From: Erwinia sorbitola | GTDB lineage: Bacteria > Pseudomonadota > Gammaproteobacteria > Enterobacterales > Enterobacteriaceae | Direction of reading: 5' to 3' | NCBI RefSeq assembly: GCF_009738185.1 | Contig: NZ_CP046509.1 | Location: 1,777,361-1,801,360, forward strand | DNA length: 24,000 nt | Part shown: piece by piece, positions 5,635 through 13,133 of the stretch | Numbering within the stretch: the stretch's first letter is position 1 | How the letters are laid out: each line of letters begins with the position of its first letter | Notes under the pieces: generated by a model | Database searches by the model: none | What the model was told of the DNA's origin: nothing | Seen by the model: only the letters and a program-made list of their open reading frames with translations | Program-made: the position numbers and the translations under genes

Positions 5635-6384
5635 ATGATAATAAAAGTCAAAACCCCGGTGGCCGGAAACGGCCCGTTTTCACTCCCCCACGGGCGATTG
5701 CTATTCTGCCCTGACCCGGCCGTGGCGGAAGACGGGCTGTTTACCCTGGCTGCCGCAGGCCGCAAGGTGGCGCAGATCTGGCATGGGCCACAGTCGCTGG
5801 TGGTGCCCTCAAGCTATAAACGTTTCAGCAACCTGGATAAAGTGAGGGCACAGTATGCTGCTGCCGGGTGTCCGGTATTTTTACGCAAGTCCGGCGGCGG
5901 GCTGGTGCCGCAGGGGCCGGGGATTATTAATCTCAGCCTCGCCTGGCCCATCGAACGCACTTTTGGTGAGGCGGCAGAGGATGTATACCGTTACCTGTGC
6001 GGCATATTAAGCGATGCGCTGCGCAGTCTCGGCGTCGTTACTGGCTGGCAGGCGGTGGAGGGTTCGTTCTGTGACGGGCGTTTTAATCTTGCCTGTGGCG
6101 AAGGTCGGCAGGCGCGTAAGATCGCCGGAACGGCCCAATACTGGCGGGCGATCCCGGGTGAGGCGGATGCGCCGCGCCGCCATGTGGTGCTGGCGCATGC
6201 GGTGCTGCTGGTGGATTGTGATCTCACGGCGGCACACCGGCTGGCTAATCAGTTTGAGGCGATACTGGGCAGCGGGCACTGTTATCAGGCGTCGAAAACG
6301 GTGAGTGTGGCGCAGATGCTGCCGGCAGGGAGTAGCGGTTTGTGTGATGAGGTTATTGATGCGCTGATTGCGCGTTTACAATAG
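5635..6384 (+). CDS. Lipoate-protein ligase (LplA/LipB, BPL) family protein, catalytic domain only
   Basis: 249-aa ORF starting 17 nt after the acoR-like stop, with SD GGAGAG. It contains the LplA-family motif context FLRKSGGGLVPQGPG (compare RRxSGGGAV in LplA) and the lysine-containing ARKIAGTAQY segment. Confidence 0.65.
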   Translation: MIIKVKTPVAGNGPFSLPHGRLLFCPDPAVAEDGLFTLAAAGRKVAQIWHGPQSLVVPSSYKRFSNLDKVRAQYAAAGCPVFLRKSGGGLVPQGPGIINLSLAWPIERTFGEAAEDVYRYLCGILSDALRSLGVVTGWQAVEGSFCDGRFNLACGEGRQARKIAGTAQYWRAIPGEADAPRRHVVLAHAVLLVDCDLTAAHRLANQFEAILGSGHCYQASKTVSVAQMLPAGSSGLCDEVIDALIARLQ

Positions 6385-6404
6385 GGGCGAGGCCAGCCTC
6401 GCCC
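6385..6404. repeat. REP-like GC palindrome, probable bidirectional terminator between convergent genes
   Basis: GGGCGAGG-CCAG-CCTCGCCC starts immediately after the stop at 6384 and lies 18 bp from the stop of the convergent dehydrogenase gene. The arms are the same as the palindrome repeated in the array at 10429-10935 (GGGCGAGGCATGCCTCGCCC). Confidence 0.6.
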
Positions 6405-6421
6405 ATGGTATTAGCGTGGGA

Positions 6422-7694: not shown

Positions 7695-9152
7695 CTAGCG
7701 GAAAGGCGGTTCGTTAAAGGTGCGCAGCTTGCGTGAATGCAGGCGGTCGCCTTCGGCACGCAGCAGGTCAATGGCGCGAATGCCAATCTGTAAGTGTTCG
7801 GAAATCGCCCCTTCATAGAAGCGGTTTGCCTGGCCCGGTAGTTTAATTTCACCGTGCAATGGCTTATCGGAGACGCAGAGCAGGGTGCCGTAAGGAACGC
7901 GGAAGCGATAACCCTGTGCGGCAATGGTCGCGCTCTCCATATCCACCGCCACGGCGCGACTGAGATTAAAGCGCAGCGCAGAAGCAGAATAGCGTAGCTC
8001 CCAGTTGCGGTCGTCGGTAGTAACCACCGTGCCGGTGCGGAGGCGCTCTTTAACCGCTTCTCCCGGCATTCCGCTTACCAGTTTGGTGGCGTCATACAGC
8101 GCACGCTGCACTTCAGCAATACTTGGAATAGGAATATCAGGCGGCAGTACCGCATCCAGTACATGATCGTCGCGCAGATAGGCGTGTGCCAGCACATAGT
8201 CACCAATGCTCTGACTTTCGCGCAGCCCGCCGCAGTGGCCGATCATCAGCCATGCATGGGGGCGCAGCACCGCGAGGTGATCACAGATAGTTTTGGCATT
8301 TGACGGGCCAACGCCGATATTAACCAGCGTAATCCCCTGGCCATCTTTGGCGATCAGGTGCCAGGCGGGCATCTGATGCTTTTTCCACGCCAGATCGGAA
8401 ACCGTCTGCTCCGGGTGCGGTGTATCGCCAGTGATCGTGATGCCACCTGCGCAGGAGAGTGCCTGGTAAGGCGAGTCCGGGTCAGCAATCTGTGCGCAGG
8501 CCCACAGTACAAACTCATCGACGTAACGCGTGTAATTAGTGAAAAGCACGTAGGGCTGGAAATCTTCTACCGGGGTGCCGGTGTAATGGCGCAGACGTGC
8601 CAGCGAAAAATCGGTGCGCAGGGCATCAAAGTGCGAGAGCGGGAAAGTCTCCCCCGGGGGCAGCAGGCCGTCAGCATTTTCATCGCCAATCTGCGACAGT
8701 TCAGTGGTAGGAAAATGCTGGGCAATACCGGCACTCATGCTGCGATCCAGGGCCAGGCTGGAGCCGTCGATCACATAGGGAAACGGGATCTCCTGCTCTG
8801 ACGGCAGCACATCGATCTGCACCTGATATTCGCTGGTCAGTATTGACAGCTGCTCGCTGAGATAGTGGCGCAGCAGTGCCGGGCGGGTGATGGTGGTGCT
8901 GTAGTTTCCGGCGCGGGTAAAGCGTCCAAAGGCACGGGTAAGACGTTGTGAAGGTGCGATGCCGTTCCAGCTAACGCGCAGCTGCGGATAGACAAACAGA
9001 CCTGCTGCACGCTGTGTCGCATCGGGCAGGCTGCCATCAGCAACAAAGGCGTTAATGGCGTCGCGCAGGGCTTCTACCGCCGCGTTGTAATGGTTTTCCA
9101 GGCTGTCGAGCGCCTCAGTGACGGTCAGGGATCGTGCTACGGGGTAAGTCAT
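7695..9152 (-). CDS. amn: AMP nucleosidase
   Basis: The protein is colinear with remembered E. coli Amn (GLFVYP.L.V.W.G...; C-terminal PNP/UDP phosphorylase-type domain ...DMESATIAAQGYRFRVPYGTLLCVSDKPLHGEIKLPG...). I place the start at ATG 9152 (MTYPVARSL...), which has a perfect SD (AAGGAGATAACATG). The ORF-track start at 9176 has none. Confidence 0.92.
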   Translation of the reverse strand: MTYPVARSLTVTEALDSLENHYNAAVEALRDAINAFVADGSLPDATQRAAGLFVYPQLRVSWNGIAPSQRLTRAFGRFTRAGNYSTTITRPALLRHYLSEQLSILTSEYQVQIDVLPSEQEIPFPYVIDGSSLALDRSMSAGIAQHFPTTELSQIGDENADGLLPPGETFPLSHFDALRTDFSLARLRHYTGTPVEDFQPYVLFTNYTRYVDEFVLWACAQIADPDSPYQALSCAGGITITGDTPHPEQTVSDLAWKKHQMPAWHLIAKDGQGITLVNIGVGPSNAKTICDHLAVLRPHAWLMIGHCGGLRESQSIGDYVLAHAYLRDDHVLDAVLPPDIPIPSIAEVQRALYDATKLVSGMPGEAVKERLRTGTVVTTDDRNWELRYSASALRFNLSRAVAVDMESATIAAQGYRFRVPYGTLLCVSDKPLHGEIKLPGQANRFYEGAISEHLQIGIRAIDLLRAEGDRLHSRKLRTFNEPPFR

Positions 9153-9212
9153 GTTATCTCCTTGAATCGTGTGCACGTTTGTCTTACAGATTTACTGAAG
9201 ATAACACCATAA

Positions 9213-10403
9213 TTAGCTGCTGGCACCCGGCTCAAGGCTGAATTTTACCTGCTCTTCCAGCGGCTGTGGGGCATCATCTAGCATTGCCATCAGGCGCTGA
9301 CCCACCTGATGGCCGAGCTTTTCGTAATTAAGGCGCATTGAGGTCAGCGCCGGAAAGGTGTGATCGCAATTGGCTGAACCGTCGAGGCATGCCACCGCCA
9401 TATCGTAGGGAACTTTGAGCAGCCGCCGCTGGCACTCCGAAAGCACGCCGAAGGCTATCTCCTCATGGCTACAGATAATTGCATCCAGATCCGGCTGATT
9501 TTGCAGCAGCTGGCCCAAAGCATAGCGGCCAAACTCTAAGCTGGGCGCATCGGGAACGGTAATCATCAGATCGGCATTTTGATAGTGCGCCATCATCGCT
9601 TTATGCCAGCCGTTAAGCTGCTGCTTGTGCAGGCGGTTATCAGTCTGCGCACCAATAAAAGCAATCCGGCGGTAGCCTTTGTCCAGCAGATGTGTGGTCA
9701 GCCGTTCGGCGGCGTCGTTGATGGCAATATCGAGGATGATATCAGCAGAAAAACGCTCTGCGCCGCAGACATTTACCGTTACCAGTTCTGCGGACTCAAT
9801 CAGGTCGCAGGTCTTTTTTGACAGCTGCGCACCAAAAAGCACCAGCGCCGAAGGGCGGTGTTGCAGTAGTTTCTCTACCAGCGGCGTTTCACCGTACTGA
9901 TGGTATTCATGACAGGCCATAATCAGCTGAAAAGGCTGTTTACTCAGGGTTTGTTGCAATGCCTGAACAAAACGGGTGCTGGCGCGGTCATGCTGAAAGG
10001 GATAGAGCACCGCTACCGTATGCAGCTGGGATGAGGCCAGCGTGGCAGCGGCCTGATTGGGCACGTAGCCGAGAGTGATAACAGCCTGCTGAATCTTCTT
10101 TAATGAGGCATCAGACACCTGGCTCGGATCACGTAATGCGCGTGAAACCGTCATCGGTCCGACGCCTGCATGGCGGGCAACATCCTGAAGTGTTACGCGC
10201 GTACCGCTCTGGGCTGCCAGTTCACTGGCCTCCGGGCTGGCCTCATAGCCGAGTGCGCGGGCGGCCTGTTCCACTTTACTGCGGACTTTTTCAGAAACCA
10301 GCTCAGGTGTGCGCATTACGCGCGACACGGTCATGGCCCCAACGCCGACGTAATCGGCCACATCCTGTAGCGTCACCCGACCACTACTGCGACGCTTGCG
10401 CAT
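9213..10403 (-). CDS. LacI/GalR-family transcriptional regulator (GntR/IdnR-like) with a duplicated N-terminal HTH domain
   Basis: 396 aa. ATG 10403 is preceded by AGGAG with 8-nt spacing. There are two consecutive LacI-type HTH segments: RVTLQDVADYVGVGAMTVSRVMRTPELVSEKVRSKVEQAARALGY (about residues 9-53) and RVTLQDVARHAGVGPMTVSRALRDPSQVSDASLKKIQQAVITLGYVPNQAAATLAS (about residues 69-123). A periplasmic-binding-protein-like effector domain follows. Confidence 0.88.
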   Translation of the reverse strand: MRKRRSSGRVTLQDVADYVGVGAMTVSRVMRTPELVSEKVRSKVEQAARALGYEASPEASELAAQSGTRVTLQDVARHAGVGPMTVSRALRDPSQVSDASLKKIQQAVITLGYVPNQAAATLASSQLHTVAVLYPFQHDRASTRFVQALQQTLSKQPFQLIMACHEYHQYGETPLVEKLLQHRPSALVLFGAQLSKKTCDLIESAELVTVNVCGAERFSADIILDIAINDAAERLTTHLLDKGYRRIAFIGAQTDNRLHKQQLNGWHKAMMAHYQNADLMITVPDAPSLEFGRYALGQLLQNQPDLDAIICSHEEIAFGVLSECQRRLLKVPYDMAVACLDGSANCDHTFPALTSMRLNYEKLGHQVGQRLMAMLDDAPQPLEEQVKFSLEPGASS

Positions 10404-10428
10404 TCTGGTTTCTCCTGATTTTTTGATT

Positions 10429-10935
10429 CCACGGTGGCGGGCGAGGCATGCCTCGCCCCTACAGCGCCGTGGATATTGAGTCGTTGGCGCATCCCGTTTC
10501 CGTCATGGCGGGCGAGGCATGCCTCGCCCCTACAGCGCCGTGGATATTGAGTCGTTGGCGCATCCAGTTCCCGTCATGGCGGGCGAGGCATGCCTCGCCC
10601 CTGCAGCGCCGTGGATATTGAGTCGTTGGCGCATTCAGTTCCCGTCATGGCGGGCGAGGCATGCCTCGCCCCTGCAGCGCCGTTGATACTGTGTTGTTAG
10701 CGCTTCCGATCCCTGTAGGGGTCAGGCATGCCTCGCCCCTGCAGCGCCGTGGATATTGAGTCGTTGGCGCATCCAGTTCCCGTTATGGCGGGCGAGGCAT
10801 GCCTCGCCCCTACAGTGCCGTTGATATTGAGTCGTTGGCGCATCCAGTTCCCGTCATGCCTCGCCCCTGCAGCGCCGTTGATACTGTGTTGTTAGCGCTT
10901 CCGATCCCTGTAGGGGTCAGGCATGCCTGACCCAG
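10429..10935. repeat. Tandem array of about 8 palindrome-containing units (71-bp and 67-bp variants), REP/BIME-like
   Basis: The palindrome GGGCGAGGCATGCCTCGCCC, or a variant of it, is centred at 10448/9, 10519/20, 10590/1, 10661/2, 10728/9, 10799/800, 10856/7 and 10923/4. The spacings are 71, 71, 71, 67, 71, 57 and 67 bp. The linkers are also repeated, in two types: ...CGCCGTGGATATTGAGTCGTTGGCGCATCCAGTTCCCGTCATGG and ...CGCCGTTGATACTGTGTTGTTAGCGCTTCCGATCCCTGTAGG. The copy at 10856 lacks the left palindrome arm. Confidence 0.9.
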
Positions 10936-11106
10936 TCAGTTTGCCGCGACAGGCTTCCGGCAACAACTTATTCTCCGGCTGATGATAAGCCGATCACAAT
11001 TAATGATAGTTATAACAGTTAGCGTTATCTTTTTAGATGCTCATCACATTAATCCGGTCGTTGTCGCACTACTCTGCTCGGGCGATTAGAGAGAGGTGAC
11101 ACTAAA

Positions 11107-11550
11107 ATGCTTAAAGAATTACTGACAGCCGACGTTGTTCAGATTATCCCTGCCTGCGCTGACTGGCGTGAGGCTGTCTCACTTTCCTGTCAGCCACTGC
11201 GTGATAACGGCACCATTGAAGCCAGCTATGTCGAGGCAATTTACCGCTCGCATGAGGCTATTGGTCCATATTACGTCGTTGGCCCCGGTATCGCTATGCC
11301 TCATGCACGTCCTGAAGATGGTGCCAACAAAATGGGCGTCAGTCTGACGGTGATCCGCGAGGGCGTGAATTTTGATTCTGACGGCAATGACCCGGTACAT
11401 CTGCTGATCGTGCTGGCCGCGACCGACAGTAACAGCCATATCGGCATTATTACCGCGCTCGCCCATCTTTTCGATACCCCTGAAGATACCGCGTCGCTGA
11501 TGGCAGCGACAGAGGTTGAACAGATTTTATCCATTGTTTCACGTTACTAA
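11107..11550 (+). CDS. PTS EIIA component, ascorbate/mannitol-fructose (EIIA-2) type
   Basis: 147 aa with SD GAGAGAGGTGA. The motif GIAMPHARPE carries the phosphorylatable His typical of PTS_EIIA_2 (UlaC/SgaA-like). Confidence 0.85.
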   Translation: MLKELLTADVVQIIPACADWREAVSLSCQPLRDNGTIEASYVEAIYRSHEAIGPYYVVGPGIAMPHARPEDGANKMGVSLTVIREGVNFDSDGNDPVHLLIVLAATDSNSHIGIITALAHLFDTPEDTASLMAATEVEQILSIVSRY

Positions 11551-11575
11551 TTCACCCCAGGAAAAGGAAAATACA

Positions 11576-11863
11576 ATGAAAATTACCGTGGTATGTGGCA
11601 ACGGTCTCGGTACCAGCCTGATGATGGAAATGAGTATTAAAAGTATCGTTAAAGAACTGGGTGTTAACGCGGAAGTTGACCATGTCGATCTTGGTTCAGC
11701 TAAAGGCACCGCCAGCGATATTTTCGTCGGCACCTCTGATATTGCCGAGCAGCTGGTGGCACAGCAGGTGGGTGGCAAGATTGTCTCCCTGAAAAACATG
11801 GTAGATAAAGTGGCGATGAAAGAGCGCATCTCTGCGGCGTTGACCGAACTCGGCGCATTATAA
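11576..11863 (+). CDS. PTS EIIB component, ascorbate (UlaB/SgaB) type
   Basis: I take the start at ATG 11576 (MKITVVCGNGLGTSLMM...), preceded by AAAAGGAAAA. The active-site Cys lies in the VVCGNGLGTS loop typical of UlaB-type IIB. The 20 codons upstream in the ORF track overlap the IIA stop and lack an SD. Confidence 0.85.
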   Translation: MKITVVCGNGLGTSLMMEMSIKSIVKELGVNAEVDHVDLGSAKGTASDIFVGTSDIAEQLVAQQVGGKIVSLKNMVDKVAMKERISAALTELGAL

Positions 11864-11873
11864 GGAAGCCAGA

Positions 11874-13133
11874 ATGGAATTTTTCCGTTTCTTAATGAGC
11901 GATGTGTTATCCGAACCCTCTATTCTGGTGGGGCTGATAGCGCTAATCGGTCTGGTGGCGCAGAAAAAACCGGCCACTGAAGTTATCAAAGGCACGGTGA
12001 AAACCGTAATGGGCTTCCTGATCCTCGGGGCAGGGGCCGGACTGATCGTCTCTTCACTGGGCGACTTTGCGGCTATCTTCCATCATGCTTTCGGTATTCC
12101 GGGTGTCGTGCCGAACAACGAAGCGATTGTTGCTGTAGCGCAGAAGAGTTTCGGCACTGAGATGGCGATGATTATGTTCTTCGCTATGGTGATTAACATC
12201 GCTATTGCCCGCTTTACACCATGGAAATATATCTTCCTCACTGGTCATCACACGCTGTTTATGTCGATGATGGTTGCGGTGATCCTGGCAACCGCAGGGA
12301 TGAAAGGTGCCAGCCTGATTGCCGTAGGTTCGCTGGTAGTTGGTGTATCGATGGTGTTTTTCCCGGCGATTATCCATCCGTATATGAAGAAGGTGACCGG
12401 ATCTGACGATGTGGCTTTTGGTCACTTCTCGGCAATCTCTCAGCTACTTTCCGCCTGGATCGGCAGTAAATTCGGTAATAAAGAGAAGTCTACCGAAGAT
12501 ATGGAAGTGCCGAAAAGTCTGCTGTTCCTGCGTGATACGCCGGTGGCGATCGCCTTTACCATGTTCTTTATCTTTATCTTCACTTGTCTGGTAGCAGGCC
12601 CGTCCACGGTGAAAGAGATGAATGCCGGTGGTAAAAACTGGTTTATGTTCTCGCTGATGCAGTCCATCACCTTTGCTGCCGGTGTCTACATTGTGCTTCA
12701 GGGTGTGCGGATGGTGATTGCCGAAATCGTCCCGGCGTTTAAGGGGATCTCTGACAAACTGGTGCCAAACGCAAAACCGGCACTCGACTGCCCGGTGGTG
12801 TTCCCTTATGCACCCAATGCTGTGCTGGTGGGCTTTCTGAGCAGCTTTGCCGCCGGGGTGCTGGGGATGTTCCTGCTGTATGCGCTGAATATGACGGTGA
12901 TCATTCCGGGCGTGGTGCCGCACTTCTTCGTCGGCGCTGCCGCCGGGGTGTTCGGTAATGCCACCGGCGGCCGCCGTGGCGCCATCCTTGGTGCCTTCAC
13001 CAATGGCCTGCTGATCACCTTTATTCCGGTGTTCCTGCTGCCGGTGCTGGGCAGTATTGGACTGGCGAACACCACCTTCAGTGACTCGGATTTCGGTGCT
13101 GTCGGTATCCTTTTAGGTCTGATTGTACGTTAA
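11874..13133 (+). CDS. PTS EIIC component, ascorbate family (UlaA/SgaT-like)
   Basis: 419-aa polytopic membrane protein with SD AAGGAAG. It shares the UlaA signature region QGVRM..AEIVPAFKGISDKLVPNAKPALDCPVVFPYAPNAVLVGF. Confidence 0.88.
   Translation: MEFFRFLMSDVLSEPSILVGLIALIGLVAQKKPATEVIKGTVKTVMGFLILGAGAGLIVSSLGDFAAIFHHAFGIPGVVPNNEAIVAVAQKSFGTEMAMIMFFAMVINIAIARFTPWKYIFLTGHHTLFMSMMVAVILATAGMKGASLIAVGSLVVGVSMVFFPAIIHPYMKKVTGSDDVAFGHFSAISQLLSAWIGSKFGNKEKSTEDMEVPKSLLFLRDTPVAIAFTMFFIFIFTCLVAGPSTVKEMNAGGKNWFMFSLMQSITFAAGVYIVLQGVRMVIAEIVPAFKGISDKLVPNAKPALDCPVVFPYAPNAVLVGFLSSFAAGVLGMFLLYALNMTVIIPGVVPHFFVGAAAGVFGNATGGRRGAILGAFTNGLLITFIPVFLLPVLGSIGLANTTFSDSDFGAVGILLGLIVR

Follow-up and report, generated by a model that had tools for sequence, protein, structure and literature searches.

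Among bacterial interspersed mosaic elements (BIMEs), BIME-1 binds integration host factor (IHF) whereas BIME-2, which consists of tandemly repeated pairs of repetitive extragenic palindromes (REPs) with conserved linkers, binds DNA gyrase. In a survey of GTAG-tagged REPs (Di Nocera, De Gregorio and Rocco 2013, PMC3733652), the tetranucleotide GTAG joined to a stem-loop is the defining signature of the GTAG REP superfamily, the enterobacterial GTAG-3 family is restricted to the Escherichia-to-Enterobacter cluster and absent from the Serratia/Erwinia cluster, and the head-to-tail arrangement of REPs is under-represented, being rare or absent in most genomes. The DNA considered here, a window of 24,000 nucleotides from Erwinia sorbitola (contig NZ_CP046509.1, positions 1,777,361 to 1,801,360; all further coordinates are those of the window unless another sequence is named), holds a tandem array of palindromes at 10435-10935 between a LacI-family regulator gene and a divergent phosphotransferase system (PTS) operon. 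Our analysis indicated, with a probability of roughly 85%, that this block is a cluster of GTAG-headed REPs that is BIME-like and behaves as a variable-number tandem repeat (VNTR). The array is the Erwinia counterpart of a BIME placed in a divergent control region, and the locus is a known type of selfish or neutral repeat and not a new system.

The REP identity of the palindrome is carried by its structure and by its recurrence at other loci. A CTGTAG or CTGCAG head precedes every palindrome of the array on one strand, which provides the conserved tetranucleotide (GTAG; GYAG/GTRG) expected at one end of a REP, and the palindromes themselves are perfect over 20 bp, within the 20–40 bp of the short palindromic stem-loops of this class. 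Single REP RNA hairpins were predicted to fold at about -18 to -20 kcal/mol, and all seven perfect hairpins with a stem of at least 9 bp in the window belonged to the GTAG-headed family, including one outside the array. The stem varied by compensatory substitutions (CGAGG/CCTCG to TCAGG/CCTGA). The family occupied two loci in the window and at least three in E. rhapontici 1SR (L010, L062 and L123), and the second window locus is the following.

6383-6406, plus strand: solitary REP, aTAG-GGGCGAGGCCAGCCTCGCCC, with an ATAG head and a CA loop instead of the AT centre

This copy overlaps the TAG stop codon of the open reading frame (ORF) at 5635-6384 and lies between convergent ORFs, and its site is a classical REP position. 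In E. rhapontici 1SR, a 62-bp unit with the palindrome of the window and an unrelated linker was repeated 4.9 times head to tail at L010 (7171-7502; NZ_CP159261, ~1.879 Mb), directly after the 3' end of a gene and preceded by the variant palindrome GGGCGGGTCATGACCCGCCC, while L062 held a small REP cluster between convergent ORFs.

These features resemble the GTAG-tagged REPs of the survey (PMC3733652) in the short palindrome, which is rich in GC and headed by GTAG or GCAG, in sub-families set apart by complementary stem changes, in extragenic sites that include gene 3' ends and in clusters reiterated in tandem together with flanking DNA. The Erwinia stem-loop differs in being a perfect 20-bp palindrome without a loop. 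The Erwinia REP sequence family was not found in the searchable text of that survey, the main one on GTAG repeats, which did not find its GTAG-3 family in the Serratia/Erwinia cluster. The present analysis documents a GTAG-type REP family in Erwinia. Megablast of 9800-11900 against 5,426 E. coli genomes gave no match, which shows that the block is not the E. coli REP. A plasmid blastn search with the array found no match, a metagenome scan with the A-type linker (defined below) gave 0 matches, a viral contig scan with the palindrome gave only 2, and an Rfam search of 9000-12500 returned at best a chance miRNA match (E 0.95). A literature search found the palindrome string in no paper.

The array comprises seven palindromes and one half-palindrome. 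Tandem Repeats Finder reported a period of 71 bp with 6.0 copies at 10435-10858 (89% matches, score 685) and a higher-order period of 209 bp with 2.4 copies at 10434-10928, and a repeat search placed six copies in register at spacings of 71, 71, 67, 71 and 71 bp. When a 20-nt probe made of half the palindrome and its flank (GGCATGCCTCGCCCCTRCAG) was allowed up to 3 mismatches, nine matches were obtained, all of them within the array, against an expectation of 0.00 from shuffled sequences. Two linkers were distinguished, an A type (n=5) and a B type (n=2), of which the B linker is a shorter, diverged relative of the A linker; both open alike with CAGCGCCGT(G/T)GATA(T/C)TG(A/T)GT(C/T)GTT(G/A)GCGC and are diverged copies of one sequence. 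Palindromes of a C type and a T type were combined with these linkers as follows.

10435-10505, minus strand: unit 1 (71 bp), nearest the regulator gene, with the C-type palindrome GGGCGAGGCATGCCTCGCCC at 10439-10458 and an A linker
10459-10464: head of unit 1, CTACAG, which reads CTGTAG on the minus strand
10506-10576, minus strand: unit 2 (71 bp), C-type REP at 10510-10529 and an A linker
10577-10647, minus strand: unit 3 (71 bp), C-type REP at 10581-10600 with the GCAG head variant, and an A linker
10648-10714, minus strand: unit 4 (67 bp), C-type REP at 10652-10671 and a B linker
10715-10785, no strand assigned: unit 5 (71 bp), hybrid palindrome at 10719-10738 and an A linker
10786-10842, minus strand: unit 6 (57 bp), C-type REP at 10790-10809 and an A linker, the interval being 14 bp short
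10843-10909, minus strand: unit 7 (67 bp), right palindrome arm alone at about 10857-10867 and a B linker
10910-10935, plus strand: unit 8 (26 bp), nearest the PTS operon, the terminal T-type REP GTAG-GGGTCAGGCATGCCTGACCC with its palindrome at 10914-10933

The hybrid palindrome of unit 5 joins a T-type left arm, GGGTCAGGC, to a C-type right arm, GCCTCGCCC, and carries GTAG/GCAG heads on both sides (10713-10744) that are able to pair. In one of the copies within the array the palindrome extends to an imperfect 32-bp dyad.

A sequence-only reading of this DNA had described eight perfect 20-bp palindromes at fixed intervals of 71 or 67 bp, joined by two alternating linker types. The eight sites were recovered, but only five hold the exact palindrome (at 10439, 10510, 10581, 10652 and 10790), the other three being the hybrid at 10719, a perfect variant (GGGTCAGGCATGCCTGACCC) at 10914 and a half-copy at about 10857. 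Centre-to-centre spacings of 71, 71, 71, 67, 71, 57 and 67 bp agreed with the proposed intervals in six of seven cases but included one of 57 bp, and the two linker types are real but do not strictly alternate. That reading was correct in proposing a higher-order duplication, as 10661-10733 is identical to 10856-10928 within a 209-bp repeat made of 71, 71 and 67 bp, and in noting a copy that lacks one palindrome arm, which is the right-arm-only copy of unit 7. It had also placed a non-coding array in about 70% of the space between a double helix-turn-helix (HTH) repressor gene and a PTS operon, and our measurements agree: the array covers 501 of 703 intergenic bases (71%), no ORF spans it, and the flanking genes encode a LacI-family regulator with two HTH stretches on one side and EIIA, IIB and EIIC on the other. 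The array encodes nothing; the longest ORF inside the spacer has 57 aa, about 2.5 units is the most that any ORF crosses, and with a period of 71 bp the reading frame changes from one unit to the next.

Comparison between strains showed that array length changes by whole units. WLZX01000001.1, which belongs to E. sorbitola J316 (PMC9978198), encodes an EIIA protein identical to that of the window, and the window and J316 were 98.3–98.9% identical over 8.4 kb, with 99.7% identity in the lacI-like regulator gene. The J316 spacer measured 579 nt against 703 nt in the window, a difference of 124 bp, and its array consists of four A units and one B unit (five C-type units) followed by a terminal T-type REP. 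All 12 assemblies of the E. rhapontici group (1SR included), whose regulator genes are 97–100% identical to each other and 85% identical to that of the window, carried a REP array in the orthologous spacer. Their unit is 76 bp long and contains a T-type REP, a 20-nt linker, an oppositely oriented, imperfect C-type REP and a second linker of about 12 nt, and their spacers measured 440, 462, 463, 538, 538, 539, 577, 614, 614, 614, 619 and 690 nt, with steps of 76 bp. In two of these genomes, L124 and L128, the regulator genes are 100% identical whereas the spacers of 539 and 463 nt differ by exactly one unit. The terminal T-type REP of the window also closed the array in J316 and nine of the 12 E. 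rhapontici-group arrays, the remaining three having two one-base variants and one truncated copy, and the first palindrome lay 35 nt upstream of the regulator start codon in E. rhapontici. Tandem reiteration with a unit number that differs between strains, as in a BIME, and head-to-tail units that vary in number among isolates, as in a VNTR, were therefore both found at this locus, and the earlier suggestion of a hypervariable VNTR is sustained by these whole-unit differences.

Short-read contigs with the regulator gene (L129-L131 and L137-L141, from Logan, JGI and ENA sequencing runs and metagenomes) stopped in or just before the array. This pattern marks the array as a systematic assembly breakpoint and calls for caution with array lengths taken from short reads, that of J316 included. 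The breaks could also be taken to mean that the array itself is an assembly artefact, and its regular 67–71 bp spacing, which resembles CRISPR periodicity, could point to a degenerate CRISPR-like array or an array of RNA genes. We consider this group of explanations all but excluded, as the array was present in independent assemblies that include three single-replicon records of more than 5 Mb (one titled complete genome; spacers of 538, 538 and 690 nt), and the identical repeats, unique spacers and nearby cas genes of a CRISPR locus were not found together: the supposed spacers are themselves repeated with just two linker types, no cas-like gene was detected among the flanking ORFs scanned, and the Rfam search gave no significant match to an RNA gene. 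The array can be used as a strain-typing marker within the E. sorbitola / E. rhapontici group, and it is of practical value as a known breakpoint for short-read assemblies.

The interpretation of the block as a BIME-like REP cluster was also compared with its closest relatives in organization. The array shares with the BIMEs of E. coli, BIME-2 especially, tandem REPs with few conserved linker types, an intergenic position and polymorphic unit number, and the 76-bp unit of E. rhapontici, with its two opposed REP types and two linkers, has the classical BIME layout. It differs in sequence, being unrelated to the E. coli Y and Z REPs, and in position, as it occupies a divergent promoter region and not the 3' end of an operon. 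The alternating orientation of a BIME was found in the orthologous E. rhapontici array but not in the window, where six of the eight units have the head on the same side and the only inverted pairs are doublets of a C-type REP, a B linker and a T-type REP. With the minisatellites and other VNTRs used in bacterial multiple-locus VNTR analysis (MLVA) typing, the Erwinia arrays share tandem units of 62–76 bp, whole-unit differences between strains and breaks in short-read assemblies; they differ in that the unit is built on a dispersed mobile palindrome and not on a locus-specific sequence. The sequence-only reading had proposed a non-coding cluster of the REP/BIME kind, and this proposal gained support from the GTAG head, from recurrence of the REP in the window and in the sister species, from its presence in or beside REP-associated tyrosine transposase (RAYT)-like genes of other phyla (described below) and from whole-unit strain differences. 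Its view that the organization is unusually regular was not upheld for this genus, since E. rhapontici has a 62-bp array of 4.9 copies at another locus and an array of 76-bp units at the orthologous one. The same reading would have reduced the array to an ordinary BIME if the REP were dispersed, if similar arrays occurred elsewhere and if strains did not vary; the first two of these three were found, but strains do vary.

Several observations weigh against the REP cluster interpretation or limit its reach. Dispersal is documented on the scale of the two window loci and at least three loci of E. rhapontici 1SR. No Y1_Tnp ORF was found in the window or in the Erwinia loci examined, and a search seeded with the E. 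coli RayT returned as its best 120 homologues only sequences of Enterobacteriaceae, which is uninformative on Erwinia. The units of E. sorbitola are mostly head to tail, unlike the alternating E. coli BIMEs, and in this respect the E. sorbitola and L010 arrays are somewhat atypical. J316 was assembled from short reads, which could have collapsed its array. At least two units were retained in each of the 14 genomes from the two array-bearing species, which would also fit selection to maintain the array. Finally, the array carries footprints of the kind that recombination or slippage between repeats would leave, and the mechanism set out below is inferred from them. A literature search found no paper linking Erwinia with RAYT.

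The origin of the array may be reconstructed as follows. A REP or REP doublet would have become established between the gene for the LacI-type regulator and the control region that this gene shares with the divergent PTS operon, in an ancestor common to E. sorbitola and E. rhapontici. A single seeding is the simplest view and fits the terminal T-type REP beside the conserved ...GTGCCG...GGCAACAA... that both species have. The REP-plus-linker unit would later have been amplified and trimmed separately in each species, presumably by replication slippage or unequal homologous recombination involving adjacent units, by exchanges at palindrome centres and by microhomology deletions. In particular, a J316-like array could give rise to that of the window through a single unequal exchange in which the terminal T-type palindrome recombines with an upstream C-type palindrome at the centre common to both, AGGCATGCCT, an event that would yield exactly the hybrid palindrome 10719-10738 and the 209-bp higher-order repeat. 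Lying where the 209-bp duplication is joined, the hybrid T/C palindrome is read as the product of recombination at its centre. Two CATG microhomologies flank a 14-nt deletion (TCATG|GCGGGCGAGGCATG|CC, at about 10857) that removed the last 2 nt of an A linker together with the left arm of the next palindrome and accounts for both the 57-bp interval and the missing arm. With such gain and loss of whole units, the locus behaves as a variable-number tandem repeat.

Relatives that possess the same gene pair without any REP provided the background against which the array can be judged, and the features that flank it are listed here.

9213-10403, minus strand: LacI-family regulator gene (396 aa) with two tandem LacI HTH stretches at residues ~8-55 and 71-116
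10981-11055, no strand assigned: control core, with a LacI-type dyad, GTTAGCGTTATC, at 11018-11029 and two ATCACA(A)TTAAT motifs
11107-13133, plus strand: PTS operon, comprising EIIA_2 (11107-11550), IIB (11516-11863) and EIIC-GAT (11874-13133)

Spacers free of REPs were found in the Erwinia L146 (229 nt; regulator gene 80% identical to that of the window), in E. oleae (196 nt; regulator gene 72% identical) and in Pectobacterium versatile (318 nt; regulator protein 69% identical). An AT-rich core next to the PTS operon (10981-11055) was common to the window and all three of these relatives, with a dyad of consensus GTTAGCG(C/T)TAAC that is perfect in E. oleae (GTTAGCGCTAAC), and this core is the probable operator and promoter region of both divergent transcription units. 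The array fills the stretch from the ribosome-binding site of the regulator gene (10411-10416, 18 nt from the array) to the conserved core. Judging from the REP-free relatives with the same gene pair, the array is probably not needed for regulation. The 396-aa double-HTH form of the regulator was conserved in Erwinia, Pectobacterium, Brenneria, Samsonia and Winslowiella, and the next relatives (Yersinia, Photorhabdus and Providencia) had 340–346 aa and aligned only to the C-terminal ~80% of the query.

Perfect 20-bp dyads between a regulator gene and the operon that it probably controls, together with the two HTH domains of that regulator, might alternatively be explained by palindromes that serve as repeated operators, the array being a protein-binding platform for the double-HTH regulator. 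This appears very improbable, as the palindrome also occurs at unrelated loci (6383-6406; L010 and L062 of E. rhapontici) and in more than 20 phyla, and its compensatory stem changes preserve pairing and not a fixed recognition sequence. Furthermore, the REP-free relatives encode the 396-aa regulator and keep only the AT-rich core with the typical LacI-type dyad GTTAGCGCTAAC.

For a BIME-like REP cluster in this position, consequences for expression of the regulator can be considered. The array begins 32 nt, and its first palindrome 36 nt, upstream of the regulator ATG, so that the regulator promoter either overlaps the array or lies beyond it; with the ribosome-binding site placed at 10411-10416, unit 1 would necessarily overlap any proximal promoter. 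A scan of 10300-11200 for the sigma-70 consensus found no site. A promoter in each unit was also considered as a candidate and was rejected as unsupported by this empty scan. The sole sigma-70-like match in the relatives was found in the E. oleae core (TTATCA-16-TATCAT, directed toward the regulator, 9 of 12 positions), and its counterpart in the window, CTATCA-16-TATCAT on the minus strand (-35 at 11009-11004, -10 at 10987-10982), is a weak candidate below the scan threshold. A promoter beyond the array would give the regulator mRNA a leader of about 570 nt carrying up to eight stable hairpins. A 577-nt leader had a predicted fold of -278.6 kcal/mol (z = -8.6 against shuffled sequence), and neighbouring REPs were able to pair in predicted hairpins of -56 to -60 kcal/mol (z about -6). 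The array hairpins are not intrinsic terminators because no T-run follows them, and inspection of the linkers by eye revealed no convincing IHF consensus. Gyrase or IHF binding, cruciform formation and stabilization of transcripts, which the sequence-only reading had listed, are candidate roles.

These predictions can be interpreted as a selected, tunable module in which the number of REP hairpins would set repressor abundance by way of promoter spacing, mRNA stability or the access of Rho or RNase, and in turn how inducible the PTS operon is. Copy number would then act as a heritable, fast-mutating dial of the LacI-type repressor that changes as at a contingency locus and diversifies PTS-operon inducibility within a population, with the array retained since the split of E. 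sorbitola and E. rhapontici (lacI-like gene 85% identical). We regard this interpretation as improbable. It draws on the first palindrome at 35–36 nt from the regulator start in both species groups, which places the array in the promoter or leader, on the absence of an array-free allele among 14 genomes of the two array-bearing species, on the only promoter-like site facing the regulator being beyond the array in the conserved core, and on the predicted folding of the leader and pairing of neighbouring REPs given above. On the other hand, three relatives keep the gene pair without REPs, arrays of the same palindrome occur at unrelated loci, the promoter is only weakly predicted (9 of 12 positions in E. 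oleae and sub-threshold in the window), and unit sequence and architecture differ wholly between species (71/67 against 76 bp), which is a better fit to selfish or neutral turnover. If true, the dial would mean that a selfish REP array has been put to use in the manner of a contingency locus. The natural allele series, from zero units in the relatives to eight, suits the study of how REP hairpins in a leader or promoter affect repressor expression.

The palindrome was also found far beyond Erwinia. The exact 20-mer CTGYAGGGGCGAGGCATGCC occurred in at least 120 stretches when one genome per species was scanned, compared with about 2 expected by chance (calculated), and two of these stretches belong to E. 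rhapontici 1SR. Hosts among the matches listed are labelled as more than 20 phylum-level groups, including Chloroflexota, Cyanobacteria, Acidobacteriota, Deinococcales, Planctomycetota, Latescibacterota, Tectomicrobia, Nitrospinota, Bacteroidia, Clostridiales, several proteobacterial classes and others. Many copies were present in the Pseudomonadales metagenome-assembled genome (MAG) OY762274, in Pseudohongiella OX638341 and in Tectomicrobia MGDP01, and compensatory changes preserve the stem in sister variants such as GGGCGACGCATGCGTCGCCC. REPs are commonly regarded as species- or genus-specific, which makes letter-for-letter conservation across phyla unexpected.

In the REP partnership with RAYT/TnpA-REP proteins (Nunvar 2010, PMC2817692) a further likeness was found, as the Erwinia palindrome lies in or by RAYT-like genes, in other organisms only. 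These genes are the following.

L070 2560-3006, minus strand: RAYT-like ORF with the palindrome inside
L074 1167-1727, plus strand: RAYT-like ORF with the palindrome inside
L075 1970-2683, minus strand: RAYT-like ORF at 1.2 kb from the palindrome
L084 1018-1716, minus strand: RAYT-like ORF with the palindrome inside

The ORFs matched Pfam Y1_Tnp and NCBIfam NF047646 ('REP-associated tyrosine transposase') at E values of 1e-15 to 1e-22, below the curated cut-off. Where the palindrome lies inside a RAYT-like ORF it is in frame and encodes VGARHASPL or VGATHASPL, and 89 of the 120 best homologues of one such ORF carried one of these peptides or a close variant, a proportion that is inflated because the peptide is part of the query and candidates were picked by 5-residue words in common with it. 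The peptide mostly lies 13–18 residues past the point at which the PNHxH (HUH) motif starts, and other homologues have different peptides encoded by GTAG...CTAC sequences at the same place (VGAGFKPAPT, GRGTACRAPT). A literature search found the palindrome-encoded peptide strings in no paper. The presence of the same palindrome in RAYT-like genes across phyla bears on the inheritance or transfer of REP-RAYT systems and may outweigh the locus itself for REP biology.

Two further hosts of the palindrome showed organizations of their own. In Coleofasciculus sp. S288 (L002, L003, L055, L069 and L105) it lies in the middle of a longer repeat with inverted-repeat ends, GGACTTACGCA ... TGCGTAAGTCC, which from its structure looks like a MITE-like vehicle for the REP. 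In the Pseudohongiella MAG OX638341, an array with a period of 105/106 bp at L052 6522-6752 alternates the REP types GGGCGAGGCATGCCTCGCCC and GGGCGACGCATGCGTCGCCCC, from which it follows that REP doublets repeated in tandem are found again in distant hosts of the palindrome family.

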